A stretch of 64,000 bases of DNA from Heterodontus francisci. Lineage: Eukaryota. The DNA lies in contig NC_090376.1 in the NCBI RefSeq assembly GCF_036365525.1, forward strand, positions 19,834,311-19,898,310, in the 5' to 3' direction. Shown one piece after another: positions 40,573-63,113 of this stretch (position 1 is its first letter; each line of letters begins with the position of its first letter). The translations under genes were made by a program, and so were the position numbers. Under the pieces are notes generated by a model, which was not told the DNA's origin, did no database searches, and saw only the letters and a list, made by a program, of their open reading frames with translations.

Positions 40573-43500
40573 CTAAAAGAAAAAGAAACACATTTGAAAC
40601 ATTAACGATAAATTTTTTGAAATAATTCCTTTTTAACAATAACTATTCTCCCATGAGTTGTAAACTCTACCTTCTTCAAGGATGTCAGGACTGTCAAGAC
40701 ATTTCCCTGATGCTTTAGTGGATAAACATACTTTACGCTATGCTGCTGAACCCGAAAAAACAGCAAAATCCTAGGTTTGTGTCCTAGCTCGTGCCGGGTT
40801 GCCTCATTTTAGCCAAAGCAGCCCCAGTGCCCTGAAACTGGGGCTGGCCACGAGTCACAGTTGTGATGCCTATAAAGTTGAATAGCCTGCCAATACCTGC
40901 TGACCAGGCTCAATGATGAATAATCAGCAGCTAGCCAAGTGCTGGATACATCTGCAGCTCACTGATGCCATTTAAACAAGACCCAGGCCTCAAAATGTCT
41001 CCAGCCTCTTCACCCCAGAATGGGTGGGCTGACTGTACGCTCCATTGACATGCCACCCAAAAATCAGGAGAAAAAATTGCTGGCGAGGGAGAAATGAACA
41101 AGCACTAACTCAGTTTCAAAAGGAAACTCCAAGCATAATACCTCGCACTCAGCATTAATTCAATTTTCCTATCGACTTGGAACTCATTGAGATCAGCTGC
41201 TTGGCAAGATTGTTAAAGACATCATTATAAAGACTTTTAACTAATGAATTCTGAAACATCTCTTGCCCAGGAGGACCTTTTCCACCTGCTCTGAAGCTGC
41301 TTTGGAAGATCTGACACATATGATGACTTGTTTGGATGACATATTTCATCCATTCATTTCCAACTGGCTGCTAGTCATCTCTGTAAGGATAAGCTCCTCG
41401 TGCTAGATTCCAATCCAAGTACGCAAACCAGTGTAAAAATGGCTAGTATTGATTAGAACACAAGGCTAACAAGTAATAAACCTTTGATTTAGTTCAAGAA
41501 GCATCTAACTCTTTTCAAAGTTCATCACCAGTCAGTTAGATACAGACTCATTGAATAAGACATCCAAATGGATCAACCTGGTCCAGTGACTTGACATAGC
41601 ATATCTCCTGAGGCTAATTTCAAACGAGCATCAACTGAAGTATCTTCCTTCATGCAAGATATTTATTTACAAAGCAACCTTTTTTAAAAATAGTCCTTCA
41701 AGTGCTAGAGAGATCTGTACATTCAAATTATTTCATCAACCCAACCAAATGATACTCTACTTTCGCCCCTTTCTAACATTAATTATAAAAGGTTAACATA
41801 GTTACGTATTTCTTACGACTAACGAAAACACAACTCTATGGTGAATAAAAAGAACTTTACGTGCTTTAGTGACCACTGGAGATTTTTTTTTTAAACCTGC
41901 TTCAAGTTAAACTGAATTTTAATTGTTTTAATGCCTATCCTGGAATTTTACTTGCTTTAATTGTTATTTGATACTTTGATTAAAAGGCAGAGCAAAGCAA
42001 AGCCGGAGTGCTTCATTTATGTTACACCACCTGTAATCATACCCCAACACAAGTCACAGTCTTGACAAGAGATAAATGAAAAGTATCGGAAGACAAACTA
42101 GGATAAAACCCTTCTCTGTTTGAAGTTATGAAACTAGATTAATTGGTGTTGAGAGGAATGTTTAATGTTGCTTTGAATTCACAAAATGTATCATATAAAT
42201 AATTCTGCTTAATAAATCTCATGTAAAGCCTCCTGTTTAATGACCTGCTTTAAAATGTCACTTTAAAAAAGTAGTGCTAGGATTTAGTTTAAGCTATTTC
42301 ATGGACTCCTCAACATATATATTTTAAAACTGTTCAGTGATTCCCACAGAATACCATTCCAGAAATGCATCAGAAACAAACATTCTCCCATTAACTGCCA
42401 AACCCTTGGTTCCTGCCCATCCTACTCACCAGTTTACGTAATGATACGGTAGCACAGGCTCCTGCTCAGACCCCTCACCAACAGCCAGTCCAGATTTTAA
42501 AGCTTTGAAATTAGCTTCAATGTCTTTTTTTAGGACGTCCAAATTAACATATCCACTGAAATAATTTAGAACTTTCTGCAAGGAGAGAATAAAAGTACTT
42601 GAATGAAAAACAGCTCTCCTTCAATTGTCTAGTGGACAGTGCCACCATCCAGTGTAGTACTAAGCCATGCAGAACAGAAGATTACTGGTTTGATTCCTGG
42701 TCTCTGCAGCATTAACCTGCTTTTATATTACAGTGAAGGGGTTTCTTGTGCTTCTGGCTTCCAAAGTGTGATCTTGCACAACTGGTAGCAGCTCCAAACC
42801 AATTCATGAAAGCCAGTGTCCAGGCAGACCCAGTTAAAAACAGATCTTTCAGTAAAACCAGTAGATTTACACTGGGGTTGCCGCTGGTTACATGAGATCT
42901 GTGCTTCAGGAATTTTCAAAACCAAGATTGAGAGATTTTTGTGTGTAAGGGTATCAAGGCATAAGGAACAAAGGTGGGAAAATGGAGTTGAAATACAGAT
43001 CAATCATGATCTAACTGAATGGCTCAAGGGGCTAAAAATGCTATGTTCCGAATAGGCCGCACAAAGCTCAGTGGTATTTTATTAATGCGTCATGTTATAA
43101 ACATCAGTTAGCCTAGAAGGAGCAGAGTTTTTATTTTTAAAAAGGAATGCCTTTCTTTGTGTCTGTTTGCTAAGGATTTGCTCTGTCGCATCAAGTGATT
43201 GGACATCAGTGACGTTGATCAATTTGCCAATATTTCTAGATGAACTCGACTCTTCAATGTATGAGCTCTAACACCTACTTAGTACTCCATCACTTTTGTG
43301 CTTTAGCTTGGAATTTTTTTAAAACACGAACTATTGAAAGACGTAAAAAGGTGATTGGGAATAAATTACATGATTAATATAACTGGCTCAGACTACATTA
43401 CACACACAAAAAAAGCAGAGCATAATCTTTGACAGCCTCCATTCCCAAACCATCCTCAGTCAGTACAACATGAGAGAAAAGAAAATCACCAATAGGGCAG

Positions 43501-46500
43501 CAAAGTTTAACTTGGTTATTACTCAGGTCCTGCATGTTTTGTTGATAATTATTAAAGGCACCAGTCTGTGTTTAAACCTTCAAATACAATCTCACACACA
43601 CCTGATGTTTCACATAATCGCTGAATTCTTTTATTCCTTTGTGGAATTAATCATGGTCATATTTACCTCATGTGGGAGAGAAGGGGGAATAGGAGGAAAT
43701 ACAAGTAGTATGATAAAAATGCTTGCTGATACATCACATAATGGACAAAGTGTTACAAGGACAATTTTTATAATGTGTTCTGAGATTAACCATGATGATA
43801 CTCACATACAAGACTGAAAGCTGATGTGCTATGTACTTGTGGCTTCCCAGGTGCTGCACATCACCTTCCAACTGCTGGCTCAAAACCAGGAGCTGATTTA
43901 GTTTCCCAATGTGGGAAAAATAATCTGCATTGAAAGCACAAACAAAGCAATTTTAGTCTTCTTCCCTCTCTGCCTCTATGACATCCTAATTGGTGCAGTA
44001 CAGTGTGGCTTTCTTGAGGAGAAAGGCAGCCATTGGAGAAATAGGGAAGATCACATACCAAGTAGAATAGGTGAAGCTATACACAAAGCTGATCATGAAC
44101 TTAAGTGTTATCAAGGTATAATAAAGCTTCTTTAGCATGGTAAAAAAAGTAAAAATTTCCTCTGAATTTAATCAGGAAATAAGGGCTAAGGATTGTCAGA
44201 AATGTACTACAATTAGTGCAAATACAGCAGTAAATGTGTTGCAGACCTACAAATGCAGATAGAACAAACCCAATAAGTAATTCATTAGATACTCATAACA
44301 CATTGTCCAGAAAAGTTATATTTTAAAACATATGCTCAAACACAAAATTACTCAATCTATAACAGAGCACAAAATTAGGTAATACTATTGACTGAACCAT
44401 GCAAAATCACAGCACAGCACAGTAAGGAATTCACAGCTTCATCATATGGTTCAAGAACATTAAAAGAAACTGCTACATTTTCACTCACTGGTTCAAGTTG
44501 CTTCCTCAGTGAAGACCAAATGTTTCCCCTTCACGGAATATTTATGCATTATATACAAAATTTAAATAATAAAGACAGTCAGTCATTCACTGATCTGTTA
44601 TAAACTTTATTTGAAGAAGCTGTTATTCAAAGTAAACACTATTTGTGCACAGACAGTATCCAGGTTTGCTTTCCTACACATAAAATGACACATTTTCCCT
44701 GCTCTTTAAGATACTGCATGTTACGCACTATTCCCTGGATGAATAAACTGTTCCCAGGCCTCCACCGGTGCTGCAGAAAGCACTTTTACATTTTCTCAAG
44801 GGCTCAACCAGAGATTTGAGACTTCCATATGCCACTCTTCAGTTTGATTATTTTTCTGCCACCACTCCAAATCAAGACTGTTGGAGGGTCTAAAGCCATG
44901 ATTCAAGAACTCCCAGCAAGGAATCCAGCTCTGTATATTTAGGTATGAGGTGGAGACCTAATGAAAGCTCAGCAGCAAGGAACAAAAAAATGGAAGCCTC
45001 CAGGGCCGTCGGCTCTCTGAAAGTCAGGTTCTTTATGGTAGCCAGTGTTGCCAACAGGAGGAGTACCTCATGCCTGTTGTCCATAATACTTCTTGCAGCT
45101 AAAAGGCTTCGTAATAGCTGTTCAGAGGAGCTCAACAACAACCTAAGGCAATGTATACAGCTTTTCTTTAGTTCCTTGTGAGAGGTACAATACAGCATGA
45201 TAGAGGTTGAGAATGTAACGTGTGAGCAACCATGAATGCAAATCCATGTCGCGTTCCACCTTATAAAACTAATGCAAGCCACTGTTCTTTAAAAAAATAG
45301 GTGAAATTAGAAGCAGAGAAGGGTGGCACAAAATAAATTCGAAAAATAAAGATCTGTTAGCTATTAACTCACCTGAAGGCAAAACCCTCACAGTTCTTCA
45401 CACACTCAACAAAAAGAGCCATCTTTGACGCAAAAGCTATAGAAAACCATAGGGTTGAGTTTCAACTCTAAATGAAAATTAAGATAAATTTTTGAAAACA
45501 ATAAAATGAAAAAGCACCTTACAAACTGTTACTAAGAACTTAAAACCAAGAAAGAAAAACTAATACTTTTTGCTGCACAGCTTATGTGAATAATGCATCA
45601 CACATAATGCTTTCCAACCCCAAACTTATAAACCACTGTACAACCTCATTTTATAGCCAACTGCAATAATGTCGGTCATGCTTCTAAACAGTTCATTAGT
45701 CTCAGATATGGCATTTTAAAATATCTGACATCTTCATAGTAGAGAGATGGCGTTAACTGAATTGACAAACTTTGTATTCAAATCTGATGGAATATAGATA
45801 TATCTACATTAGCACTATGCAGCCCAGAGAAAACAACATGTTACATTTATATAATATAATAGTTCCGAAGAAGGGTCACTGACCCGAAACGTTAACTCTG
45901 CTTCTCTTTCCACAGATGCTGCCAGACCTGCTGAGTGGTTCCAGCATTTGTTTTTATTTCAGATTTCCAGCATCTGCAGTATTTTGCTTTTATAACGTTA
46001 CATTTGGTTTGTTAAGTAAATATTCACAGAAGGTAACAAAAAAAGGTAGCAAACAACCACTTTGTACTCCTTGCTAGCAAGTAACGAGAATACATTTAGG
46101 TTTTTCTAGACGCTTTGACCCCTATGGTATATTATCATTTCATTTAACTCCATTAACTAAAATTAAAATACATTTGAAGCCTTTGCACAAATTTTGATCC
46201 TGCTCAGCTTCAGAGAAGCAAATATTAGCAGAAGAAGGAAGAAGAACTGGAAAATATAGTAACACACTCACAATACAATTGAGTGTTTTACAGATTTTTG
46301 TGTCCAGAACTCTGATCAGTTTTACATGGAAACCTAAGGATTAAGTTTACAGAGCCAATTTGCCTGATCTTTGCTCCTGGAGAGAGGCTCTGGATCGGCG
46401 CAGGCTTGGAGGACCGAAGGGCCTGTTCCTGTGCTGTAATTATCTTTGTTCTTTTCTTTGTTTGTTCTTTGACCTACAGGAATTGTTGCCCTTTTTCCTG

Positions 46501-49500
46501 CAGCTTGTCCAGATAAATTGAAAGCAAACAATCTGAAATGGAGCAAGATGTGATTATGAACAGCCCAGGTGGTGGCTAATTATCAATCTGGCTATGATCC
46601 ATCCCCTTTCTCTAAGCATATTTCATATAAGGCAAATCTCAGCCTGTGTTCCTGGCACAAGCACTAATGGAATCATAGAATGGTTGCAGCACAGAATGAG
46701 GCTATTTGGTCAGTTGAGCCCAAGCTAGTTCTCTGCAAGAGCAATTTAGCTAGTCCCACTCCCCCGCCCTTTCCCTCTAGCCCTGCAAATATTTTTCCTT
46801 CAGGTGCTTATCCAATTCCCTTTTGAAAGCCACGATTGAATCTGCCTTTACCAGCCTTTCAGGCAGTACATTCCAGATTTTAATCACTCACTGAATAAAA
46901 AAAAAATCCTCATGTTCCCTTTGGTTCTTTTGCCAATCACCTTAAATCTGTGTCCTCTGGTTCTCAACCCCTCCGCCAATGAAAACAGTTTCTACCTATC
47001 TATTCTGTCTCTGACCCCTCATGATTTTGAACACCTCTAACAAATCTCCTCTCAACCTTCTCTTCTGTAAGGAGAGCAGCTCCAGCTTCTCCAATTTATC
47101 AACGTAACTGAAGTCTCTCATGCCTGGAACCATTCTCGTAAATCTTTTCTACGCCCTTCTAAAGCCTTAATATCTTTGCTCAAGTGCGGTGCCCAAAATT
47201 GGGCACAGAGCTCCAGTTGAGGCTGAACAAGTGTTTTATAAAGGTTCATCATAACTTCCTTACTGTTGTATTCTATGGGGAAATTTTATGCTCTCCCCTC
47301 CAGCAGGTTTGGAGGCAGGGAGAGCATATAATCGGGTGGGTGGGTGGCGGGGGGAACCCTGTCAACTTCCCGCCTCAGCTGAAATTAAATCCGATTAATG
47401 CCCAATTAAGGGCCTCATCCCGCCGCCGCAATTAGCCGAACAGGCGGGCAGCCCTGTCGACGCATGGGAAGCGCGGCAGGTAAAACAGTGCGGGCTGCTT
47501 GCCGACTCCTGGAGGGTGGGTGTTGGGAGGGTCCCTTGTTAAAAGGCTCTTAGTGCCTGAATGAAAGACCCAGCATTGGGAAGGGGGGCCCTCTGAGAGC
47601 CAGCCCCCTGTCCTTGCTGCTGACCCCTCTAAACACTCCCTCCCTGCGACCCCCACGCTACAAGGCCCCTCCTGTTCCACTGGCCGGCAGCTCTCAGGGG
47701 TCAGGACTTCCTTCACCAGGGTCCTTGATCCCATGGAAGGCCTGCCGCTGTCCATTCATGTGCCTAATTGGCACTTGATTCAGTGGAGCTCCCACAGAAG
47801 AGGTGACACCGGGTTCTTGGCGTCGCTTTTGCCAGACGTCGAGACCCCGTCGTCCAGATAAAATCCCAGCCTATGCTTCTATTTATAAAGCCCAGGATCC
47901 CGTATGCCTTTTGACCACTTTCTCAACCTACCCTGCCACCTTCAACAATTTGTGCTCATATACTCCCGGGTCTCTTTGGTCCTGCATGACCTTTAGTTTA
48001 TGTTGCCTCTTCTCATTCTTCCTACCAAAATGTATCAACTAGCATATTGTATTTTAATTACATCAACGTCCATCATCTCATTGTTACATTTTAACAGCAA
48101 AACCTTTCAATGTGTACGTTACCCTTTATTCAGTAATATACTTCATTTTAATCCATTTAATGTGATGTTACAGTTCTTCTGCAGAATTAAAAAAGAGACA
48201 CACAACCAAAATCGTTAAGAGCAAGACATTGATACAGATATCAGTTATTTGTAGAACATAGGTGAATGTATCAAGACAGGGGAGACCATTCTTACCATCC
48301 AAAGGAGGCCTTTCCAGCATGTCAACGGGTCTACCATGTATTACAAATATTTCAACACGGGGAAACAACGTCGACAATCCTTGAGAATCCAGATAGTCCT
48401 GTAAAAGACAGTTTACACTGTACTTTCAGACTTATGAAAAGGATGTAACATAGCAATAATACAGCAACAGCATCCTTTAGTTCCAGAGCACATTTTTTTT
48501 TAAAGAATAGTCGTTTGGTAATACAGAACTTGAGAATTGCTGAAAATAGAGACATGTTGTCGAAGCTTTTCGTCTTGCACTCATCAGGACAATACACAAG
48601 AATAATCAATGTAAGGGAAAAGCAACAACTTATACTGCATGAGAAGAGAGCTATTTTAGAATGGTAAAATCTATCAAATTCTTTCCAAAAACAGCTGTAT
48701 TTAAATAGCACCTTTGCTGTAGAAAATGTCTCAAAAGTGCTTCACAGACCTTTCCACTATTATCACTAGTGCATCAAGGCTACAGATTAAGGTACTTTAA
48801 TGCAAATATTTTTCAACCAAACAGATGTCTAAATAGGAACAACATTACATAAGAATCAACAATTAATTAGTTTTAAAAGATAGTAAAGCACATTACCTCC
48901 AGCTGTGGAACAGGGTCTGGCAGATGCTCCAGATATTGTTTAATTCTTTCAACATAATCTACACCTGTATGAGAATGAAAGAATAATTTGAAAAACAGCC
49001 AAGCAAATTGCTGAATTCCAATAGACCATTACTACACCCTGGATAAGTATTTAAAAATAAAGCATCTCTTCAGAATTAAATGCATCCCCTTTTGGAACCT
49101 GGACTGAAGTCCAGCCCAAACTGATCACTGTAAGGGTCCTATATGAAAAAGATATGGACGATAACAACCTATTTCATGGTAGATAAGGAGCCAAAATAGA
49201 AAACTGCTCCAGGTTAGCAACCTTATATAAGGGTTACAGGATGGCTGGTATTGAAAATGGGAAAAATGTTGCACTGGTGGCAGTACAAGCTACTTGCCTG
49301 CAACTGGGGCAGAGGCACATTTTTGGAACAGAGTTGAGAAAGCATTACTGTGCATTTAACCTTGCCTGGGAGTTTTTGACGCTGACAACAGGCATGCAAA
49401 ATGGGGGCAAGGGTGGCAGAAAAACTATTTTCTTTTTTCAAAACTTCATACTACTTCCAGATTTCGCCCGCCACCACCCCCCCCCCCCCCCCACCACAAC

Positions 49501-52500
49501 CCTCTTCTTTTGGGCCTCCTTATCTCGAGAGACAATGGATACGCGCCTGGAGGTGGTCAGTGGTTTGTGAAGCAGCGCCTGGAGTGGCTAGAAAGGCCAA
49601 TTCTGGAGTAACAGGCTCTTCCACAGGTGCTGCAGAGAAATTTGTTTGTTGGGGCTGTTGCACAGTTGGCTCTCCCCTTGCGCCTCTGTCTTTTTTCCTG
49701 CCAACTACTAAGTCTCTTCGACTCGCCACAATTTAGCCCTGTCTTTATGGCTGCCCGCCAGCTCTGGCGAATGCTGGCAACTGACTCCCACGACTTGTGA
49801 TCAATGTCACACGATTTCATGTCGCGTTTGCAGACGTCTTTATAGCGGAGACATGGACGGCCGGTGGGTCTGATACCAGTGGCGAGCTCGCTGTACAATG
49901 TGTCTTTGGGGATCCTGCCATCTTCCATGCGGCTCACATGGCCAAGCCATCTCAAGCGCCGCTGACTCAGTAGTGTGTATAAGCTGGGGATGTTGGCCGC
50001 TTCAAGGACTTCTGTGTTGGAGATATAGTCCTGCCACCTGATGCCAAGTATTCTCCGAAGGCAGCGAAGATGGAATGAATTGAGACGTCGCTCTTGGCTG
50101 GCATACGTTGTCCAGGCCTCGCTGCCGTAGAGCAAGGTACTGAGGACACAGGCCTGATACACTCGGACTTTTGTGTTCCGTGTCAGTGCGCCATTTTCCC
50201 ACACTCTCTTGGCCAGTCTGAACATAGCAGTGGAAGCCTTACCCATGCGCTTGTTGATTTCTGCATCTAGAGACAGGTTACTGGTGATAGTTGAGCCTAG
50301 GTAGGTGAACTCTTGAACCACTTCCAGAGCGTGGTCGCCAATATTGATGGATGGAGCATTTCTGACATCCTGCCCCATGATGTTCGTTTTCTTGAGGCTG
50401 ATGGTTAGGCCAAATTCATTGCAGGCAGACGCAAACCTGTCGATGAGACTCTGCAGGCATTCTTCAGTGTGAGATGTTAAAGCAGCATCGTCAGCAAAGA
50501 GGAGTTCTCTGATGAGGACTTTCCGTACTTTGGACTTCGCTCTTAGACGGGCAAGGTTGAACAACCTGCCCCCTGATCTTGTGTGGAGGAAAATTCCTTC
50601 TTCAGAGGATTTGAACGCATGTGAAAGCAGCAGGGAGAAGAAAATCCCAAGAAGTGTGGGTGCGAGAACACAGCCCTGTTTCACACCACTCAGGATAGGA
50701 AAGGGGTCTGATGAGGAGCCACCATGTTGAATTGTGCCTTTCATATTGTCATGGAATGAGGTGATGATACTTAGTAGCTTTGGTGGACATCCGATCTTTT
50801 CTAGTAGTCTGAAGAGACCACGTCTGCTGACGAGGTCAAAGGCTTTGGTGAGATCAATGAAAGCAATGTAGAGGGGCATCTGCTGTTCGCGGCATTTCTC
50901 CTGTATCTGACGAAGGGAGAACAGCATGTCAATAGTCGATCTCTCTGCACGAAAGCCACACTGTGCCTCAGGGTAGACGCGCTCGGCCAGCTTCTGGAGC
51001 CTGTTCAGAGCGACTCGAGCAAAGACTTTCCCCACTATGCTGAGCAGGGAGATTCCACGGTAGTTGTTGCAGTCACCGCGGTCACCTTTGTTTTTATAGA
51101 GGGTGATGATGTTGGCATCGCGCATGTCCTGGGGTACTGCTCCCTCGTCCCAGCACAGGCATAGCATAATTGTAGCTTGTTTTAACAATTATTTCTTAGA
51201 AATAAAAGTTCTAATTGTTATGAAGACAGCAACAAAGCATTCACACCTCAAAAGGCCATTGGGACCCAAGCTAGGTACTAACATACCATAGGTCTTAGCT
51301 GACAGTTCAGTTATACACCTCGCCTGAATGAAATCAATGGAAAAGACAGCTGCTATTTCACTATTGCCCATCTTGTGCTGCTGCCCAAGTCCATTTCATC
51401 ACCCACCACCCTACCCCCACTCCCCACATGGTTTCTGTGCCAGGCCCTCAACAACCATACAATAACTAGCAAAGAGGAAACGCAGCTTTGAATATCAACT
51501 TTCACTTTATGGACTTTGTTTTACAAAAATAGCACATATTTTATAACAATTTTTTTTTTGCAAAAGCCCATTGTTGAGACAGCTGTGGCTCCACTTGTCC
51601 CATACCTATTTACATTCCTAAACTAATTTTTTTTTTTTAAATGCAGTCTCAATGTAACAACCTTTCCTCACCCGGGTAATTTTATTTTCCATTAATCTAG
51701 ATTGTGGGATCGTTCAACCAAAGGGTTGCTCGCCAGGTTGTTGACACTTTGTTGACAAATGATAACCAAATCATAAAAGCTGCCACAAAATGGATATACT
51801 TTGAATGCAAATCTAACAACTCTATCCTTCTCCTGAAGGTTTAAATATAGTTTCCTGGACAGCAAGCATCCAACCAGTCATTATTTACTCTTGCGCCTGT
51901 TTGTAGTAGGTTGTCAGAATGCAGGACAAGTCTCTCCCAATGTCCACACTCACACAGTTCCAGCAGGGTTCACTTGATAAGAATCAGGAGTGGAAACCCT
52001 TGCCAATCTTTCCTCCCTCTATGATGGATGCTGAGATCAATGGAAACATACAGACCATACCTACCCCTTGGATGAGATCAGCTAATTGAGCACACCTTCC
52101 TTTCACTTTGAAGTTTTTTTAAATCTTGTTTCCTTTAGATTGCTCTTCACTGCTTACCCAAGATGGCAGAAATGCTGTGCAAAAATGGGTTCTGATGAAA
52201 GGTCACAGACCTGAAACATTAACTCTGTTTCTGTCTCCACAGATGCTACCTGACCTGCTATGCATTTCCAGCACTTTCTGTTTTCATTGGCAGAAATGCA
52301 ACCTGGCGCCCAGACCTCTGCCAATTCTGCAGCATATCAACTGCTGGGGAAGGTACAAGAGAACTGCAGGTTAACACAAATTACTGTTTTCCTTCTTTTA
52401 TGTTCTAAGGAAAGTGACTCACTTCTGCTGAACAGACTGAGCAAAGTTTTCCACTCATATGCTTGCACCCCACCCCACGCCACACCCACCTCCAATTTAT

Positions 52501-55500
52501 TATAATGGACAAAAAATTCACAGGCTAGTGAGCACAAACATAGAGTATAAATGTAGAAAACCCTAGTCACTGTTTCTTCTCTCTCTTTATTAATCCAGTT
52601 TACTATGGAAAATGAAGGATTATAGGTCTACCCATTACCCTGTGAAGTTGGTATACTTATACCACACCACTGCAATACGCCAGTCAACCCAAGAGTAAGG
52701 CATACACGACAGAATGCAATTTCAGTATACTGTGATTTTATGCAGAAAATTATCTTTCAATACTTATAAAAAGGAAAATTAGTACAATCATAAGAAAACT
52801 CTTGCCTAAACTGAAAAGGTGGGAGAAGTTAAAGTTATCTCAATTTACAAAGCAGCAGAGAGAACTCTACAGCTAGCAAAGTATCATTAATCAGTAAATC
52901 AATGGAGACTCACAGGTTGGATGTTACTTTCCCCCTCCCCACCTCCAGGTTAAGGTGATTCCATGGGGGACCATTGGGCACCTTGGAAATCAAATTGGAA
53001 TTTAAAAAATGCAACGCTGGACAGGAAAAGAACAGTAAAATAGAACCATTAAAAAAAAATCTTTGACCTTTCCCGGCTCTTTATTTTCACAGGTGAGCCT
53101 CTGCCTACCTTCACCTCTCGTTTCTAGCGCTGTTTACAAAAGATCTCCTAATCCTGCCAGTTTTTCTACTCCACGCAGCTGTGGGCAGCTACCCTCAAGA
53201 ATATCTGCTCCAGAAACCTTCTACTGGGACTGATTAAAGACTTCTCAAATACTACAGTTTTTTTTTTTACTTAAACAGAGTTACTGGACCTACCTTTTAT
53301 GTGAAAAGACTCTGACTCTACAGGGCTTTTATCGTCTCTAAGCTGTTCCTGTAACTAGAAATAACAACAGCTTTGATTAGCCAAATGATAATACAAACCT
53401 TTCCTAATTCAGAATAGAAATATATATTGCCCAAGTAACAATAAACAATTACCTGAACTGTACCAGGGAACTAAAGATTAAGTGAAAGAGGGACAAGGTA
53501 AAGAAGTTTAAAGGTGAGAGAGAAGATCTCCTCCAAGACACGTACCATCCTTGGTCATATATTGCTGTTCCTTCAGCATTGGTGGCTCAATATCTTGGAT
53601 GTCCAAACCTAACAGCATTGTGAGAGTACCTTCACCAGTAAAATGTTCAAGAAGGTGGCTCTCCACCACTTTCTCAAGGGCAACCATGGGTGGGCAATAA
53701 AAAAGTGCTGGCTTGCTCGCAATGCCCATATCTCAAGAATTAATCTTTAACAAAGCAAGGAAAAACGATTTAGAAAGAGAGTTTCATTGTAGAGAGGTGT
53801 CATAGCTTAAAGGTCTGACATTGGAGCAGTAGGTGTTGGGAGTGGGCTGGGCGGGGTGGGGGGAAGGTAGGATACACAAGAGACCCGAGTTAGAAGATTT
53901 CTTCATATGTGAGAATAGGCTGTAATTTTTGCAGGCTATTTAAACAGAGGCCATCATTACCAAACCTGATCCTGTCCTTGCCCAGTATTCACACAACACA
54001 CTTGTGGACAGGTGATACAGAACAAGCAGCAGAACAGTGCTGCAAATATTGTCCTGGCTGACAGTAATGTCAATGCAAACTGCAAATTGAATCTGGAACA
54101 TTCTGGTCCATATGCGGGATGCTGCCCATGGGATAAGATATACATCACACTTCATAACATTGGTCCTCCTGGCAGGTCATGCCACTTGTGGAATAAACAT
54201 TAAATGACTCATCTACCTCTATTTATATTACAGCTGTAGACGTGTAGCTGAACTTCAGCAAAAATGTATTCTATATGTATACTTCGTTCAGATCTACGTT
54301 ATGGGACATTCTCATGAGGCACTGACTTTTTTTTTAATTAAATTGTTAAACTATTTCTTGCCTATATCAGTGGGCAGTAAAAGACACACAGATTGTAACT
54401 GTAAACAGCAACGCTTGGAACTGGTTACTATTACTCTGTTCAAATTTCCTATAAAAAAAGACTTCCTACAGAATCCTAATAATCATACTGAAATAGAATA
54501 ACAGATTTTTTTTTAAGTAATGAATCGAGTCACAATTAAAAGAATTCTAACAAACTTGTTTTGCAGCTAATGTAATTATGGTCAGTCATTGATTGTCACA
54601 ATCAGTGATCACACCTCATTTAACTGACAGATTACGTACTTGATGCACCTCCGCTCGGATAAGGAGATCGAGCTGAAAACAGAGAGACCAGATCTCCACA
54701 GCCACTTGCTCACTGCTCAGCTGGATGGGTTGAAGGGGTTTCTTAATGTTAACATCCACTGGACACAAGGGAGGCAACAAATCACATGTTATATCATAGT
54801 TATGCCAAGTTAACCTATAAAACTCACAAACAGAAAACTGAACCAACTGAATTTAATTTATACAATTTTATTTCTTCACTGGATCTCCTATTCTCCCCTC
54901 CATATTCCAATTGTCTCAGTACATCAGGCTGAGATATAAAAACTTTAATTTTTACAAATTATTAACAATTCAACAGACATTTCCAAGTTTAGCCTTAGGT
55001 CATTGGTAGCATTCCCCTGAGGTTGTGGGTTCAATCCCCACTCCAGAGACGCAAGCACAAAATCTAAGTGCAGTACTTCACTGAAGTGCTAGCCATCAGA
55101 GTTACTGTGGACGCAAAAGATCCCACAACATTACATTGAAGAGGAGTGGGGTACTTTCAGCCCACCCATCCCTGTGTCCTCTTCGTAGAATATACCAACA
55201 TATCTTCCTTCTTGCACTTCTCTATATCCCTCTCTGGGTATAGGCTGTCCACAGACTACCTCGATTACACATGAGGCTAGAACTACTGCAAGCCGGATAC
55301 GGTCAGCTGGAACAATTAAATCAGCAGAATGGGAGTTGCTGCAGGTTGTAACTACACCAATAATGCCGTGGGATCTTTTACATCCACCCAACAGGGCACA
55401 CGGGGCCTCGGTTTAACATCTCATCCGAAAGACAGCACCTCTGACTGTACAGTACTCCATGAGTGTCAGCCTCGGTACTCAGATCCAGGAGTGAGACTTA

Positions 55501-55824
55501 AACCCCCGACCTTCTATATTACTGAGGTATGACAGTCTATCTTGCTGCCTCAACATTTTGGGGGCAACACCGTTATTATTAAATGCATTGTCCCATTTGC
55601 TGATATAATTAATTATTACACTGGGCGTCTCCCACCTCTGGATTGTCTTCGACAGATGCAAGAACATTGTTAGATATAATGCGTGGCATAACACAGGCTT
55701 TTTTTATATTTATAATCACAATGTTTATCACTGTAGTTGTCTTATCTAGGCCTTCCATACCTCTGAAGCGCCGCTGGTAGGTGCAGGGCTCCCGCAGCGG
55801 CTCCGTCCGCCCTACTGCTGCCAT
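40467..55824 (-). CDS. Uncharacterised conserved protein, 8 coding exons, 261 aa (resembles zebrafish si:ch211-218d20.15-like family)
   Basis: Hand-built model join(55761-55824, 54640-54758, 53294-53354, 48897-48964, 48296-48398, 43806-43924, 42430-42575, 40467-40572) = 786 nt. All introns are GT-AG and all phases match (1,0,1,0,1,0,2). Protein MAAVGRTEP...KPLQPIQLSSEQVAVEIWSLCFQLDLLIRAEVHQ...EHLPDPVPQLEDYLDSQGLSTLFPRVEIFVIHGRPVDMLERPPLDDYFSHIGKLNQLLVLSQQLEGDVQHLGSHKYIAHQLSVLY...LPEELTEELSLAMSFVMNLR*. Family name is from recall. Confidence 0.88.
42430..42575 (-). CDS. Uncharacterised gene, exon 7 (KVLNYFSGYVNLDVLKKDIEANFKALKSG...YHYVNW)
   Basis: Acceptor tctccttgcag; donor TG|GTGAGT; 146 nt. 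Confidence 0.88.
43806..43924 (-). CDS. Uncharacterised gene, exon 6 (DYFSHIGKLNQLLVLSQQLEGDVQHLGSHKYIAHQLSVLY)
   Basis: Acceptor tttcaatgcag; donor TAT|GTGAGT; 119 nt. Confidence 0.9.
45861..45992 (+). mobile_element. Short Penelope-derived element with minimal hammerhead-like motif (45861-45897)
   Basis: agtt-ccgaaga-a-gggtc-act-gaccc-gaaa-cg-tt-aact; nearly identical to 63847-63982; flanking gttacattt repeat. Confidence 0.72.
46390..46470 (+). mobile_element. CR1 extreme 3' end (same family as 13024-17680)
   Basis: tggatcggcgcaggcttggaggaccgaagggcctgttcctgtgctgtaat matches 17608-17660. Confidence 0.85.
46672..48035 (-). mobile_element. CR1 LINE 3' fragment interrupted by a MITE
   Basis: (atagaat) tail and CR1 RT C-terminal similarity; resumes after 47871. 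Confidence 0.75.
47277..47871. mobile_element. GC-rich MITE with 3-bp TSD (PIF/Harbinger-like)
   Basis: tat|gggg...agcc|tat splits the CR1 sequence ttctatgc; imperfect TIRs ggggaaattttat / ataaaatcccagcc. Confidence 0.65.
48296..48398 (-). CDS. Uncharacterised gene, exon 5 (DYLDSQGLSTLFPRVEIFVIHGRPVDMLERPPLD)
   Basis: Acceptor tcttttacag; donor G|GTAAGA; 103 nt. Confidence 0.9.
48500..48650 (-). mobile_element. Second Penelope-like terminal-repeat fragment containing a canonical minimal hammerhead
   Basis: Carries the hammerhead at 48557-48592; boundaries approximate; no clear TSD. Confidence 0.55.
48557..48592 (-). ncRNA. Minimal type I hammerhead ribozyme motif
   Basis: UUGUC-CUGAUGA-GU(GCAAG)AC-GAAA-AGCU-UC-GACAA: intact CUGANGA/GAAA/UH core, 5-bp stem I, palindromic AAGCUU stem III. 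Confidence 0.7.
48897..48964 (-). CDS. Uncharacterised gene, exon 4 (GVDYVERIKQYLEHLPDPVPQLE)
   Basis: Acceptor ttctcatacag; donor GAG|GTAATG; 68 nt. Confidence 0.88.
49503..51165 (-). mobile_element. RTE-clade LINE, 5'-truncated, uninterrupted RT frame (young copy) in intron 3 of the uncharacterised gene
   Basis: ORF 49557-51188 (543 aa): NYRGISLLS, FIDLTKAFD, GVKQG, LFADD, C2H2 end; (gaa) tail. Confidence 0.95.
52188..52285 (+). mobile_element. Short Penelope-derived element with hammerhead-like motif (52188-52224)
   Basis: ggtt-ctgatga-a-aggtc-aca-gacct-gaaa-ca-tt-aact plus family body. Confidence 0.68.
53294..53354 (-). CDS. Uncharacterised gene, exon 3 (LQEQLRDDKSPVESESFHIK)
   Basis: Acceptor gttatttctag; donor G|GTAGGT; 61 nt; phases fit neighbouring exons. 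Confidence 0.82.
54640..54758 (-). CDS. Uncharacterised gene, exon 2 (VDVNIKKPLQPIQLSSEQ...AEVHQ)
   Basis: Acceptor ttgcctcccttgtgtccag; donor CAA|GTACGT; 119 nt. Confidence 0.85.
55761..55824 (-). CDS. Uncharacterised gene, exon 1 (MAAVGRTEPLREPCTYQRRFR)
   Basis: ATG in a CpG-rich patch; donor G|GTATGG, phase 1, compatible with exon 2. Confidence 0.72.
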
Positions 55825-56477
55825 CGTTACCAGGACAACAGCAGCCGGACCCTAATGCGTGCCACACCAGGTCACCCAGGGGTTACGGTGGAACTCAACT
55901 CCTAATTTATAAATGAAAATTATGTTTTAATAATTTTTAAACATTTTAATCATTAATTAAATGTATCAAAACGATATTTATTTTTTAAAATGTTCAAGAA
56001 ATGTTCTTTTAAAAAAGCGTGTTGCAGTCTAATCGTTCCGTGGAGGAAACAGAAAAAGTAAAAGAAAAATTTAGGGACGGTTTTAGTTTCTGAAATGTTT
56101 AGCAGTAAGCGAAGTTCGTGCCTGCTCTGGTAAAGTCGTCAATGAAACAATCAGAGTTGGAGTTATGTTGTAACCGAAAGGGATTGGATTTAGAAAAAAA
56201 AATCCATCTGGGAAGCTCAGAGAACATTTTATTAAGCTCAAGACGCAGCCACATTTGCTGGGGATTTATGCTCTGTTTTAGGCCCCACTGATACTTCACT
56301 CTGTTAATGCAAATGTGGCAGTAAACTAAATAAGCAGATAACGGTATGTACAGGAATGAGGGTGAGCTGGAAAGTGTTAGCTGAATGTGTTTTCAACCCT
56401 CCAATCAGCACATTGTGTTGAAAACATTATGAATACAATTACCTGACTTGTAACTCTGGTGTCAGGTGTTCACAGTT
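55825..56477. promoter_or_regulatory. Putative bidirectional promoter between the two divergent genes, with RFX X-box motifs
   Basis: About 650 bp between divergent ATGs; CpG-rich patch 55770-55890; GTTACCAGGACAAC (55826-55839) and GTCACCCAGGGGTTAC (55871-55886). Confidence 0.6.
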
Positions 56478-56931
56478 ATGGAGTTACTGAGGAATATCTC
56501 GAAAATATTTTTACTACATCCCCTGAAAAAGTTCCAGCCTCGGAAAACATGTTTATCAACATTTGGCACAAAGATACCAGACTTCGTGTGTTTCCAGCCA
56601 AAACTGCCTTTGAGGAGCAGAAGTGTTTCTGATAGTTTAGGGAAAAATCAATGTACTGGAAATTTATTTTGCCATGACTTTCGGTATTTTGCCACAAGTA
56701 AATGTCTTTCAAAAAGCAGAAAAAGTACCAACAGCAGAAAGCCCTCAAGAAGTGGAAACCAAAGTGGGGAGAACGATGAGGTGACGACAGAAGACAAATT
56801 TGAATTGGAAGGTGCTGAATTTGAAGAACTGTTTCAAGAACAAATATCTCCTCTTCCTGAAGGAGGTCATAGAGTATTTATTGTCCATCCAGATGTAAAG
56901 TGGGGAGGAAAGAAACAACATCTCACAACAG
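56478..56931 (+). CDS. GTPBP6: GTPBP6 coding exon 1 (basic N-terminal extension, probable mitochondrial targeting peptide)
   Basis: ORF MELLRNISKIF...HRVFIVHPDVKWGGKKQHLTT; donor G|GTAAGA. Confidence 0.85.
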
Positions 56932-59900
56932 GTAAGATTGTTATTAACTAATTCAAACTGTTTCAATGTTCTGTAAGAGCATTCTAGCATAGTGGCAATG
57001 TTAGTGGACTGGTAGTCCTGAGGCCTCCACTAATGACTTGGTGACAAGAGTTCAACTCCCTCCACAGCAGCTGGGGAATTTAAATTCAGTTAATTAAATA
57101 AATATAGAATAAAAAAGCTTGCATCAATGATGGTGACCATGTAACTCTTGGAATGTCATTTAAAACTTCAGCTGGCTCTGCCATCGTTACCTCGTCTGAC
57201 CTATAGTGATTCCAGGCCTTCTGCAATGTGGTTGACTCTTAACTGACTCCTGAAATGGCCTAGCAAGCAATTCAGTTGTTAAGGTGGTTCACCACCACCT
57301 CCTTGAGGACAATTAGGGATGAGCACATGAACCTGAAATGTTTATGTTTCTCTCTCCACAGATGCTACCTGACTTTTTATCTACCCTATCTCATCCTTTC
57401 ATAATCTTAAAGACCTCGAACAGGTCATCCCACAGTCTTTTTGCAATGGAAAAGAGCCCCAGCCTATTCATTCTTTTTTGATAGGCATAACTTTTCAGTT
57501 CTGGTGTTATTATAATCATTTTTGCACCTTCTCCAGTCTCTCTATATCCTTTTTATAATATGCAGAGCAGAACTGTTCACAGTGCTCCAAGTATAGTCTG
57601 TACAAGTTTAACATAACTTCTCTGCATTTCAATTCTACCCAATGCTTTGTTTTTAATTACATTTTTAAACTGCATCACTCATTTTAGTGATTTATGTATG
57701 TGTGCCACCAGATCCATCTGCTGCTCTACCCACTAAGGCACCTATTTTCCAAGGAGTGTGTGACCTCCTTATTCTTTCTACCAAAATGTGCCACCTGTTA
57801 CGAATTCTGGAATTTGTACTGTAGTTATGTTTTAAAAACTGTGATCTTTAATGCAGTGTAAAATAGACATTCGGAGGAAACGTGTGACCTCATACAAAAT
57901 CTGCCAGAGGTCTTGGTTACCATGAGAACAGGGAACAAGACCGTTTTGAAAGCAGGGTGCTATGTTGTTTCACCTAAAGGACAATGGGTTTCGCTCTCCC
58001 AGACTCTCAGATTGTAAACAGGGAGTCAGGGGCTTTAAAATGCAGATTTGAGTTGCAATTTTTAACACCTGGAAACAAAGGAAGGCCCAGGTGGTTTTGC
58101 TATGGTCAGACTTATGGTCTTTGAAAAAATGTCAAAGGCAAATAACTATTGACTTTTGATCTGGATAAATTCGACAGGCTTTCCTAGGTTTAGGGCTGAA
58201 AGGAAGATACAAGGACTAGCAGTTCGCTGTGCTGCCTAAGAGAGAGACAGAGAGACCAGTGTGCTATTTCTGAGGAAACAGCTGCTCTCAAATCAACGAT
58301 ACAGAAAAAGGCTGCTAAGATTTGAACCCGGTTCGAAGGCTCGAGGTTTGCAGAGGAGAAAAGACCAACAGGTTCACCAGAGCTTGCTTTATTAACAGAA
58401 GTCCAGTCGAATGTACTCTGAAGAAGTGAGCGAAGAGGACGTTGTCTTTGAGAAGGACACTGGGAGATCCAACCCAATGCAACTGGGAGAAGTTTGGGAC
58501 TTTTAACAGCAAGGATGCCTTTTCCACTCAGAACGCTATAAATGTGGTGTGGGGTTTTCAAGTGTGTTAATATGTTAATGGGAAATACTTTTCTCTGTAA
58601 TTTGGTGTATTTGCTACCTATTAAGTACTGTCTAGTTAATGTTGATTTTTTTTGTTTAGTTATTAAAGTAAAAGTTTTAAAACGTGATATCTTGTCATGT
58701 GATTCTTTAATTGGTCACTGGGAAGTGCATATCTCTTGTTTTAAAGTGAACGGTGTCTACAGAGGTTATAACACACCGCACATTTATCCATAGGATTGAA
58801 GGCTGCAATACATCTGCAGTGGTTCAGATTATACTTTATTCATTTCACTTCTATATTTAAAATGATTGCTAACTTTTGTTAGAACAGAAAACTAAGAAAG
58901 GCTGTCTTACTGAATCGTAACTTTACCTGGATAATTTCAAGTGATAGTGGAATGAAATATGATTTGCGTATAACATTGGAGGTGCCTGGTGTAAGGGAAA
59001 GCGGAAGGAGGTGAAAAGTGGTCATGAAGAAAGACCACTTTTTATTCGAGCAGTAAAGGTAAAGAATGTTGGACATCTTCAAGATTATGAAGGATTATGA
59101 TGAGATAAATAGTGTTAGATTGTTTGCACTGGTGAGAGAGTAATGAGAGGGCACAGACTTGAGACAATCACAAAAGAATTAAAAGGGAGGGTAAAAGCTA
59201 TTTCTTTACACAGAGGGTGATTTAAGATGTGAAATTTCTTTTTAGCCACAAACTATTGTTGGAGGATAATACAGAAACAGAGTCTATAAATTAATTTAAA
59301 AGGAAATTAGATAGTTGTTTGAAAAAGAGAAATATTAAAGGATATACGGGAAACGGCAGAAGGGTGGATTTAAACTACGTGGCTCATGCAGAGAAATCAC
59401 GGGCACAGACATGAAAGGTGAAATGGTCTGTAACATTCAATGAATCTGTACTCCAGTGCAACATACTACAGAATTTGTGGCTGATCATGGCTGTGTTGTT
59501 GATGTGCATCAATCATCACTGTGCCTCATCGCACAATCTCCTACTGAAATTCCTTCTTTCTCAGTAATTCAAAACTGTAGACTTTCTTGCCTTGAGCAGT
59601 TTGTTGTTTTTCCCTTCTACAATCTTTTGTTTTTTTTAAAATCTTTTCAACCTTGTTAGTGGTCTGCAGCATAGATTGACTATTTAATATAAAATTAAAA
59701 TAGTAAGTGCTGGAAATACTCAGCAGGTCTGGCAGCATCTGTGGGGAAAGAAACAGAGTTAACATTTCAGGTCCATGAGCTTTCGTCGGTTAACTGTTTC
59801 TCTCGCCACAGGTGCTGCCTGAACCTGAGCATTCACAGCATTTTCTGTTTTTATTTCAGATTGCCAACGTCTGCAGCATTTGCTTTTGGATTGGCTTTTT

Positions 59901-62243
59901 GATTGGTTTCTCCTCTTTTAATAATAAGGAATGCTAACTCAGCAGGCTCTTCATTTGCCCTTGAGCATCTTCTAACAGGCTGTAATGTGTGCTGTATAGT
60001 TGCTCTGACCACCTCCAGGCGCGTATCCATTGTCTCTCGAGATAAGGAGGCCCAAAAGAAAAGAAAAAGAAAGAATAGTTGCTCTGTACCTTGAGATTAT
60101 ATTCACCTGGTGTCTCAATTCTTTCCTTCCTTTCTTCACAAGGTGAACTTCAGATGGCTGAAGCAGTTGCTCTAGTGAACACCCTGCCCAACTGGCATGT
60201 TGTTGATAAGATTATTCTTTCTACGAAAAGTCCAGACAACAAATTCATTTTTGGCAAGGGCAATTTTGAGACCCTTACAGGTAACTCAACTGACTTTTTA
60301 ATGACAAAATGTTGAAGCAGAATCTAGAGGACACTAAATTATATATCTTAAAAGGTATAATTTAAAATGGTGATCTGCAAGTATTTGTACCTTAATGTGA
60401 TATTTTCCAGTAGTGAAGAATTTTTTCTTTAAATGTCTTATCTCACCATATTAGAGTGCATTCAAAGAAAAATCAGGAAAAATCTATTTTTATGACGTCA
60501 CTGTAGTTTCATCACACAGAACTTACAAAGATATATTGGAACACTGTGGGCTGTTGGTACAGTTAAGCCTATTTAGAAAATTATGTCCTGTTAGTGATCA
60601 AGTTATTTTGGCAATGCTTTGTTAGAGTAAAAAAAAGTAATACCTTTCACAACCTCACTATGTCCCAAAGTACGTTACAGAAAATTAAGTGTTTTTGAAG
60701 TATAGTCATTGTTGTAATTTAAATATTACTGTTTTGCAGACAAATTAAAAGGGCTGCCACGGGTTACTGCAGTATTTATGAATGTTGAGCGACTGTCTGC
60801 ATTATCAGAGGTAAAGAAGTTTCACCCGAGCAAAGTATATGATGTGAAGTAATAATTAATCACAGTGTACTGTATAATACATAATAATTGATAGCAAGGA
60901 GTGGGGCAATATTTTCATCAGGTGATTAAATTGCAAACTAGAGGAGTGAAGCTCGTATAGTTCATACAGTGTCCTGGAATGGCAGAGATTAGAAAGCTGC
61001 TTTAAGCCACTATTTGGTGTCTGATAGTTTGTAATTTTCTGCACAGTTTTGGTAGTATTATTCTACCAGGAGGGGCTGTAAGAATAGATGTCAAGAGTTG
61101 ATGAGCTGCATGTTTCAGATGCATGGTGCTCATGCAAAAGTATTAATGCACATAATATTATTACTCAAGTCTATGAAAAAAAATTGTGATTAGTGGTGCA
61201 GTCTGGTATGATACTGAGTCATACAGATGAGATTGTCCTAAGTTTGACCTCAATTCTGTGCTAACATAGCTGATCACAGCCCTGGACATAATCGTGATGC
61301 CATAGCTGGACTTAAAGTTAGTGTTTCTGTGTCTGATCATTATCCAGCAGTCTCTGGTCAATGAAAAGTGCAGGTTTGTGGCCATCAGATGAGGACATGA
61401 TCAGGCTTAGTTGTGACGCCCCCAACCCCCCAAGCCCAAATAGCCTGACGTCAATCTGACTGGCTGGGCTTACACATTTGGGCAAGGTACTGAAGGTCAG
61501 CCGAAGGAACAATATACCAGAATTACTTGGTGCCTTTAGGAGAAAATTTGAGGAAAACAAAAAAAGGAAAATATGTTTATTTAAAGAAATAATGTAAAAC
61601 TGATTAAATTCTGAGCATAAATGCTACCATGCAGCATTCATTTCAATATTTTGGAGCAAGGCAGCAGTCTAATAAACTATAGAACTATGTATATTTTTAG
61701 AAACTTTGTGCTGCTGCAAGAATTTTTGGACATCCAGCAGCATTTAGATTAATTTGTACTGGCATTATTCTACTTATCTTTGTGCTGTGAGAAGCCATGG
61801 CTTAGATTTTATGAACACGGTGCAAATTAAAAATGGATTATAAAACCATTCAGGAGAAAAATAAAAATTGAAGTGTTAGATTTTTTTTTTCAAACTAGAG
61901 GTTTATGAGAAGTTTAGACTTTCTTCAAAGAGCTTTCATTTGCCAATATTCTTGGTTTCAAAAGTGTTCACACCATTCTTTGTCCCAGTGTTGGAGAATC
62001 ATACAGCACAGATAGAGCCATTTGGCCCATTGTGCCTGTTTAACATTTTATTGTGTTGACTATACTCTGTGTAAAAGGGAAAGAAGTAAAATATTTCCTT
62101 TGACCCTGTTAGAAAGAGTTGGAATCTGCCTGGGGAGTTAAAGTGTTGGACAGGTACTCAGTCGTCCTTCATATTTTCCGTTGCAATGCTCGGACTAAAG
62201 AGGCCAAACTGCAGATAGCACTCGCTGAGATCCCATACCTGAG
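56478..62243 (+). CDS. GTPBP6: GTP-binding protein 6 (mitochondrial HflX-family GTPase), first four coding exons; gene runs beyond the window
   Basis: join(56478-56931, 60143-60280, 60740-60810, 62113-62243), GT-AG introns, phases 1,1,0,2. Peptides VHPDVKWG, AEAVALVNTL, FIFGKGNFETLT and KELESAWGVKVLDRYSVVLHIFRCNARTKEAKLQIALAEIPYLR match the GTPBP6/HflX N-terminal domain as recalled. Confidence 0.93.
57796..58773 (+). mobile_element. Solo LTR (Gypsy/ERV-like) in GTPBP6 intron 1, inserted in an old CR1 remnant
   Basis: TGTTA...TAACA termini; 4-bp TSD cacc (57792-57795, 58774-58777); ATTAAA near 58662. Confidence 0.72.
59050..59445 (+). mobile_element. Old CR1 3' fragment
   Basis: Degenerate similarity to 21530-21930. 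Confidence 0.6.
59690..59890. mobile_element. Head-to-head inverted pair of Penelope-derived short elements
   Basis: 59697-59789 (minus) abuts 59790-59888 (plus) of the same family, giving a long imperfect inverted repeat. Confidence 0.7.
60008..60074 (+). mobile_element. Ultra-short RTE 3'-end insertion
   Basis: accacctccaggcgcgtatccattgtctctcgagataaggaggcccaaaagaa matches the reverse complement of 49505-49557; 12-bp TSD atagttgctctg (59996-60007, 60075-60086). Confidence 0.9.
60143..60280 (+). CDS. GTPBP6: GTPBP6 coding exon 2
   Basis: Pyrimidine tract then AAG|; ELQMAEAVALVNTLPNWHVVDKIILSTKSPDNKFIFGKGNFETLT; donor G|GTAACT. Confidence 0.92.
60740..60810 (+). CDS. GTPBP6: GTPBP6 coding exon 3
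   Basis: ttttgcag| DKLKGLPRVTAVFMNVERLSALSE |GTAAAG. Confidence 0.9.
62113..62243 (+). CDS. GTPBP6: GTPBP6 coding exon 4
   Basis: cctgttag| KELESAWGVKVLDRYSVVLHIFRCNARTKEAKLQIALAEIPYLR |GTAAGG. Confidence 0.92.
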
Positions 62244-63113
62244 GTAAGGGTTTGATTTCCTACAACTCCCCTAAAAATTTAACAGTATCACATAGACTGA
62301 CCATATCATGGGAGGAATACTTAGTTAATTGAGACAAGTTATTCCTCCGAGCTTCAAGACATGAGCATGAATCCAAATTGAAAGGAAGTTTGTTGGCACG
62401 CTATTTCCCTTTTAAAAAATTAGAAGAAAATTGAATTTGGATTGCTTCAAATCCAGTTCCTGGTTTGCATACGAGTTCACAGCACAGTTTGTAAATAGGC
62501 ATTATTAATATGTGTGTTTCACTCTGATGTCGTAAGGCTGTGTTTCCAGTTTGCCAAATGGGAAAAGATTTGGGAGTTTGGGCATGTTGTCAATGACGTC
62601 AGGGAAGCTTTGCTTTGCACTAGATCTGAGACTACAGTTAGAAGTTGAAATGTCTTACTTTGCTGCAGCACAGTATTGCCTATAAATCTAGATAACAAAT
62701 GCATTCAACAAATAGTTCGACAATGTTTGTCCTTGCATAAAACTTCCAGCAATCACAAAAAGAACTGATGAATATGGGGGAGTTTCTTTTGCAATTGGAA
62801 GTCACAGAATCCTGGCAAGCCCAGTTCACTGCATAAGAATGCTTCATAACTGGTTGCTGTCTCTCTGCCCTGGCTCTGCTGCATTTGGGATGTCATCGCT
62901 GATAGCAAGTCCTAATTTCTTTAAACTTCTCAGTTGCCCGATTGTGCTTCGCTGAAGGAATCTCGTGTGAGAGATTTCACATTAAAGTACAGCAACAGTA
63001 AGTACATAGCATCCATATTTTTTTTTTTAAAGGAATACTCTGCTATATAATGTAACTGTGGGGGGTGGTGGAATTCACTGATTTTTTAAATTTAATTTAT
63101 CCTTTGAAAATAT

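Follow-up and report, generated by a model that had tools for sequence, protein, structure and literature searches.

The locus examined here raises the question of whether a hammerhead ribozyme that lies in the sense orientation within an intron of a shark gene can cut the pre-mRNA of that gene. In the window, by which we mean the whole 64,000-nucleotide stretch of Heterodontus francisci DNA that was analysed, the original prediction placed an intact minimal hammerhead in an intron of an uncharacterised gene, described it as a Penelope terminal-repeat remnant and held that it could cut the host transcript. We conclude with considerable confidence that the hammerhead sits in a 144-bp truncated 3' end of a Penelope/Poseidon element and is likely an inert passenger, spliced out uncut with intron 4.

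The minus strand of 48592-48557 reads UUGUC CUGAUGA GU GCAAG AC GAAA AGCU UC GACAA and carries all the core positions of a type I hammerhead (C3-U4-G5-A6-N7-G8-A9, G12-A13-A14, A15.1-U16.1 and H17), with an open-ended helix I of 5 bp and a 2-bp helix II closed by G10.1-C11.1 (Table 1). The full core, 5-bp stem I, short stem II and palindromic stem III are exactly as originally described, and the word intact holds at the level of sequence, activity being predicted. The bare core pattern occurs 10 times in the window against 6.5 expected, which is no enrichment, and 4% of dinucleotide shuffles yield a motif when only a stem I of 5 bp or more is asked for. The strict descriptor that joins a stem I of at least 5 bp to a palindromic helix III, the kind of motif search that had been recommended, was matched in 0 of 200 such shuffles. 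The other recommended check, with the Rfam hammerhead models, lent no support: hammerhead matches were absent from the whole window at the gathering score and from 47500-49500 at E<=5, and the scans gave three weak matches, all unrelated to the hammerhead. Presumably the Rfam hammerhead models are not built on the minimal forms of Penelope-like elements (PLEs).

Table 1. Features of the hammerhead locus, in window positions.
Feature	Position	Strand	Basis
Host gene, si:ch211-218d20.15 homologue; 8 coding exons, 261 aa	40470..55824	-	matches XP_067889328.1
Host coding exon 4	48897..48964	-	exon mapping
Host intron 4, 498 nt, GT-AG, phase 0	48399..48896	-	exon mapping of the 261-aa protein
Host coding exon 5	48296..48398	-	exon mapping and protein matches
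5'-truncated Penelope/Poseidon-type 3' end (pseudo-LTR plus tail), 144 bp, solo, in AT-rich DNA	48507..48650	-	BLAST, copy alignments, junctions
First 16 codons of the element ORF (MSLFSAILKFCITKRL), including the optional tail	48507..48555	-	same sequence runs into the ORF in L084, L088 and L099
Minimal type I hammerhead motif	48557..48592	-	read from sequence; the 36-mer has 586 exact genomic matches
Stem I, 5 Watson-Crick pairs	48592-48588/48561-48557	-	5 Watson-Crick pairs
Core CUGAUGA	48587-48581	-	read from sequence
Helix II (2 bp: G10.1-C11.1 plus U-A) and 5-nt loop GCAAG	48580-48572	-	2 bp plus 5-nt loop
GAAA	48571-48568	-	read from sequence
Palindrome AAGCUU (A15.1 to U16.1)	48568-48563	-	read from sequence
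C17	48562	-	read from sequence
Predicted self-cleavage site after UUC (C17), 48562/48561	48561..48562	-	standard hammerhead numbering

The host gene is defined by a 261-residue H. francisci protein, XP_067889328.1, which maps letter for letter onto 8 minus-strand exons from 55824 to 40470. The si:ch211-218d20.15 proteins matched by the exon at 48398-48296 come from sharks, a ray and bichir; they are uncharacterised, as the host gene had been called, and the host protein contains no Pfam domain. The exon mapping places the hammerhead in the sense orientation in intron 4, 304 nt past the donor, with its 3' end 159 nt (about 160 nt had been estimated) and its predicted cut 163 nt upstream of the exon 5 acceptor. 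An ORF at 44893-45183 was rejected as a host exon, having no homologue and falling outside the mapped exons. Four sequencing runs that are guessed to be RNA gave contigs which, on 43000-62900, are swamped by repeats; among the joints listed none shows the exon 4-5 junction, and piled-up starts or ends, a signal that contigs would in any case not reveal, were not reported. An acceptor-like site (a pyrimidine tract plus CAG) lies within the element at 48551-48540 (-), 141 nt upstream of the true acceptor of exon 5; splicing to it would lengthen exon 5 in frame and run it into a stop codon, and we found no evidence of its use. A plus-strand gene at ~56000-60300 stands head-to-head with the start of the host gene at 55824 (-), a few hundred bases away. 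It shows a weak N-terminal match to HflX-type GTPases (PF13167, E=0.0008, 60079-60312), and may be GTPBP6-like. Contigs cover this neighbour at 56006-56932 and extend to 60197 and 60768.

The motif-bearing fragment could be traced to its source through its relatives elsewhere in the genome. The 144 bp of 48650-48507 match the 3' ends of loci L001-L010 at 84-94% identity (BLAST, best match per locus). In three near-full-length copies (L084, L088 and L099) the AUG of the element ORF follows the predicted cut by 6 nt, and the ORF carries DKG and a reverse transcriptase (RT). Since the pseudo-LTR (pLTR) repeat precedes the ORF and the AUG is 6 nt past the cut, the tail of the window copy is the start of the ORF. 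Longer family copies contain a decayed ORF with DKG, the RT motifs GVAMGSPLG and YVDD, and a C-terminal VIYEFQCQCDARYIG endonuclease. Among decayed copies, 3 of 4 fragments gave Pfam matches, to RVT_1 (E=6.7e-5) and GIY-YIG (E=0.0018), both below the curated cut-offs. The ORF features of an EN+ PLE, namely an RT with DKG plus, at the C-terminus, a GIY-YIG that has two Cys between GIY and YIG, are found in these other copies only, the window fragment being without them. Neither phage records nor the PDB gave a match to the PLE protein.

The arrangement of the family copies also agrees with an EN+ PLE. The structural hallmarks given in PMC8557442 are partial tandems of the pLTR, an inverted truncated partner and an optional tail of 30-40 bp, and the shark family shows pLTR partial tandems, an inverted 5'-truncated partner (in many copies) and an optional tail of ~30 nt. 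In genomic copies the motif lies in the pLTR, downstream of the end of the GIY-YIG ORF and upstream of the ORF start. Copies end at their 3' side ~20-30 or ~50 nt past the motif, and in 17 of 61 the end coincides with that of the window copy. Judged by these sequence features, the motif-bearing fragment is the end of an EN+ Penelope-like element, and the claim of a Penelope terminal-repeat remnant is upheld both by the 144-bp match to element 3' ends and by the PLE RT and GIY-YIG of other copies. Moreover, translations read by eye contain no CX2-5CxxC Zn-finger in the RT-EN linker, the property by which PMC8557442 distinguishes the Penelope/Poseidon clade, and this missing finger points to a placement of the family there.

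The closest published counterparts are the hammerheads that Cervera and De la Pena described in 2014 from the pLTRs of metazoan PLEs (PMC4209133), which, by that account, share with the shark motif the CUGANGA plus GAAA type I core, the 5-bp helix I, G10.1-C11.1, a dimer-type palindromic 15/16 region, the position in the pLTR and an occurrence as thousands of mostly solo genomic copies. The earlier statement that PLEs carry minimal palindromic hammerheads of dimer type agrees with this architecture (PMC4209133). In build the shark motif is nearest to the variants with six-nucleotide palindromes in that study (AGCGCU in shrimp, AGAUCU in Oikopleura and AUAUAU in D. virilis), its own palindrome being AAGCUU. 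Its helix II, in contrast, is 2 bp with a 5-nt loop, whereas helix II spans 3-8 bp among the 56 alignment rows of Fig. S3 of PMC4209133, none of which is from a shark. The motif also lacks the extra base between A9 and G10.1, as do the shrimp and one Saccoglossus row, and exceptions for the extra base and 3-bp helices are on record among PLE hammerheads (PMC4209133). The shark motif, with 2 bp and no extra base, therefore departs from the PLE consensus of a long helix II and an extra base at 9/10.1. The report of Lunse, Weinberg and Breaker, RNA Biol 14:1499, is said to include very short stem II variants, and the 2-bp form of helix II may already be in print. By its title and a review (PMC6765202), that report concerns the same association with PLEs, and the review states that small PLE-associated hammerheads cleave as dimers. 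Poseidon_Ac (PAc) of Anolis carolinensis (Frangieh et al. 2024, PMC11167929) resembles the shark family, by its described features, in the Penelope/Poseidon domain order, the hammerhead at the pLTR-ORF junction, the optional tail of ~30 nt within the ORF start and the AT-rich insertion site.

Identity as a tandem retrozyme was rejected: a non-LTR retrozyme consists of tandem repeats, each with a hammerhead (bioRxiv 10.64898/2026.07.22.740005), and the shark motif is a single copy in the 64-kb window. The same survey, as described, included one chondrichthyan genome and placed ~42-44% of its Xenopus copies in introns. A search of literature open without subscription found no paper on shark PLE hammerheads.

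The family is large. The 20-mer of core and helix II has 2,610 exact matches in the 6.0-Gb genome and the whole 36-mer has 586, with 0 for the reversed-pattern control in both searches. The exact 20-mer is present in 16 of 61 sampled copies, a sample that leans young, and together with the 2,610 matches this suggests a Penelope family of ~10,000 copies or more. None of them is a neighbour, as the 64-kb window contains no second copy of the AAGCUU family. Among 100 listed of 676 AAGCUU-type matches we found no sister family with another helix II; those listed are for the most part members of the AAGCUU family mutated at G10.1, alongside scattered sequences unrelated to it. In the family majority none of the 11 invariant core bases is changed, G10.1-C11.1 is retained, and both the 5-bp stem I and the palindrome are perfect.

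The original prediction had offered preferential conservation of the core and covariation of the stems as tests, and neither was seen among 61 copies of the family. These copies were picked by ORF similarity or upstream flank, independently of the motif; the selection gave 77 segments, of which 76 were unique and 61 spanned the motif. With alignment columns removed by the analyst's own choice, non-CpG core positions are changed in 23/605 cases (3.8%) vs 104/2549 in the flanks (4.1%; Fisher p=0.82). G12, which lies in a CpG, is changed in 13 of 61 copies, and other CpG guanines in 31 of 114 (p=0.47). A first pass on 35 copies had given 4.9% for the core vs 9.1% for the flanks (p=0.006); this apparent conservation was gone once indel, subfamily and CpG columns were dropped and copies were added. 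No compensatory change was found at the 10 helix pairs across the 61 copies, a result that is expected for dead copies of one family and is therefore weak evidence. By a loose rule the motif is intact in 23 of the 61, and 5 have the 36-mer of the window. Genome-wide, otherwise exact 23-mers number 1,045 with G12A vs 2,152 intact. The family copies, G12 included, decay neutrally. The lack of core conservation and covariation argues against a function of the dispersed copies, not against ribozyme identity in the source element.

The window copy differs from the family majority at 1 of 84 columns, and only 1 of the 61 copies is as close. This closeness could reflect youth, ascertainment (the copy was picked as intact) or selection. 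We also considered domestication of the copy, as an intronic ribozyme with a regulatory role, on the pattern of the amniote RECK, CTCL and DTNB hammerheads, which as described in PMC6155905 are likewise sense type I motifs in vertebrate introns, derived from retroelements. Besides this precedent and the low divergence, such a reading could draw on the sense orientation, the nearness to the 3' splice site and the conservation of the gene. The amniote examples, however, have been conserved between species and are built like canonical type I ribozymes with tertiary contacts (PMC6155905), whereas the shark copy is a dispersed repeat with a minimal fold, one of thousands of equivalent copies, that keeps ordinary element boundaries and has gained neither a helix III nor a longer helix II. 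We see no sign in it of a conserved intronic ribozyme of the RECK type, as such ribozymes are described in PMC6155905 and PMC6765202, and regard domestication as extremely unlikely.

Whether a lone copy can adopt the active fold was examined with nearest-neighbour energies. The monomer hammerhead fold is at +3.9 kcal/mol vs an MFE of -4.3, in keeping with a palindromic 15/16 region (AAGCUU) that forms no stable helix III, and the probability of stem I is 0.000 in 144-, 200- and 498-nt contexts. The double hammerhead is at -7.7 vs -15.2 kcal/mol for the best dimer. We consider the folding result weak evidence, as the energies ignore tertiary contacts in the core and also disfavour the hammerhead dimer of a second family in the window (-13.7 vs -24.8).

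This second family is a short repeat with minimal-hammerhead motifs, present in 5 window copies at 45865 (+), 63851 (+), 52192 (+), 36454 (-) and ~59787 (-); it probably represents the ends of another Penelope family. Its motif has an extra base after A9, a 5-bp helix II and an ACGU-type palindrome, and in every window copy the core or the palindrome is altered (U4C, or ACAU in place of ACGU).

Published work on related motifs agrees with an inactive single copy. Single minimal hammerheads did not cleave and dimers cleaved slowly and to a low extent in PMC4209133, and the Anolis PLE hammerhead is reported to cleave only with the element protein, to be dispensable for insertion and to leave no RNA-seq read ends at the cut site (PMC11167929). 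The insertion record of the shark family also bears on cleavage. Of 41 ORF-start loci, 25 are joined to an upstream repeat, and 16 with an alignment score <30 were set aside; L126, L133 and L138, among the ORF-start loci, look like duplicates. Of the 25, 22 run 5' past the cut and 3 begin <=7 nt from it. As 22 of 25 copies read through the cut site, their templates were mostly uncut or religated, and religated circular RNA could be an alternative source of the read-through copies. A start of full-length copies at the cut was considered as a sign of cleavage in vivo and rejected: L084 and an inverted piece in L028 do start there, yet only 3 of the 25 copies begin within 7 nt of it.

The same record could mean that the 2-bp motif is a degenerate relic, inactive even in its source element, a reading that overlaps partly with that of an inert passenger. 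A helix II shorter than in all 56 rows of Fig. S3 of PMC4209133 (minimum 3 bp), the missing covariation and the 22 read-through copies speak for such a relic. In the family majority, however, the motif stands at the usual position of PLE hammerheads with its 11 invariant core bases, its G10.1-C11.1, its stem I and its palindrome all unbroken; in a lineage that replicates without selection, some of these would be expected to be lost before long. We think a relic unlikely.

It is the remaining claim, that the ribozyme could cut the host pre-mRNA, that the analysis disfavours: the copy is solo in the window, its fold is not predicted in the intron, its family decays neutrally and published single motifs are inactive. 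Cutting by the lone intronic copy is unlikely. A version of the claim in which the copy cuts at a low but real rate and lowers gene output, through trans pairing of AAGCUU or the element protein, has in its favour that the core, G10.1-C11.1, stem I and palindrome are all intact, that the intact core 23-mer occurs in ~2,000 other copies, and that contigs of the four guessed-RNA runs pile up on the bin of the repeat, strand and level being invisible in contigs. With the acceptor only 163 nt downstream, however, cleavage would have to outpace splicing within the seconds to minutes that the speed of the polymerase allows. Moreover, the family is represented in the window by this copy alone, and other hammerhead-like motifs inside the host gene are of the second family only, with a different, ACGU-type palindrome and in antisense, so that the intronic hammerhead has no cis partner. 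G12 is lost in a third of otherwise exact copies and published dimers are slow (PMC4209133), against which stands the protein assistance of the Anolis hammerhead (PMC11167929). We hold low-rate cutting to be distinctly improbable. A broader proposal, that the thousands of intact dispersed copies act as half-ribozymes and that sense intronic ones are cut in trans by a family transcript or the element protein, dampening many host genes, has in our estimate only a very slim chance.

For the favoured reading, an inert passenger, we propose the following history. In the source element, two tandem pLTR motifs would pair through AAGCUU into a slow double hammerhead, possibly aided by the element protein. 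Reverse transcription of the element may have started within the tail, at 20-50 nt on the 3' side of the motif, a behaviour reported for the Anolis element, and target-primed copying would have passed through the uncut ribozyme and stopped after ~144 nt. With a helix III of <=1 bp and a helix II of 2 bp, the lone copy is predicted to remain uncut up to the splicing of intron 4.

Vertebrate genomes are known to contain PLE terminal hammerheads by the thousand, and the shark intronic motif is one ordinary copy. The family is nonetheless of modest use as a test sequence: its helix II is very short, its start codon comes 6 nt past the predicted cut, and its copy number allows a genome-wide comparison of sense and antisense copies in introns as a test of PLE hammerhead cleavage in vivo. 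If solo copies do cut host pre-mRNA in trans, this would be a new route from retrotransposons to effects on gene expression.

Several further features of the repeats were noted. Very short inverted pairs of the element end place two opposed motifs within ~30-120 bp of each other (G000:C1:50255515-50255597, C3:35324944-35325096 and C1:6449926-6450045). A strong donor-like CAG/GTAAGT stands ~120 nt into the ORF in L084 (512-640), L088 and L099 and may mark a PLE intron. An RTE-like element occupies 49560-51188 of the window; its short end recurs, 98% identical, as a small insertion (49502-49560 and 60005-60063) and is found again inside the PLE copy L088.
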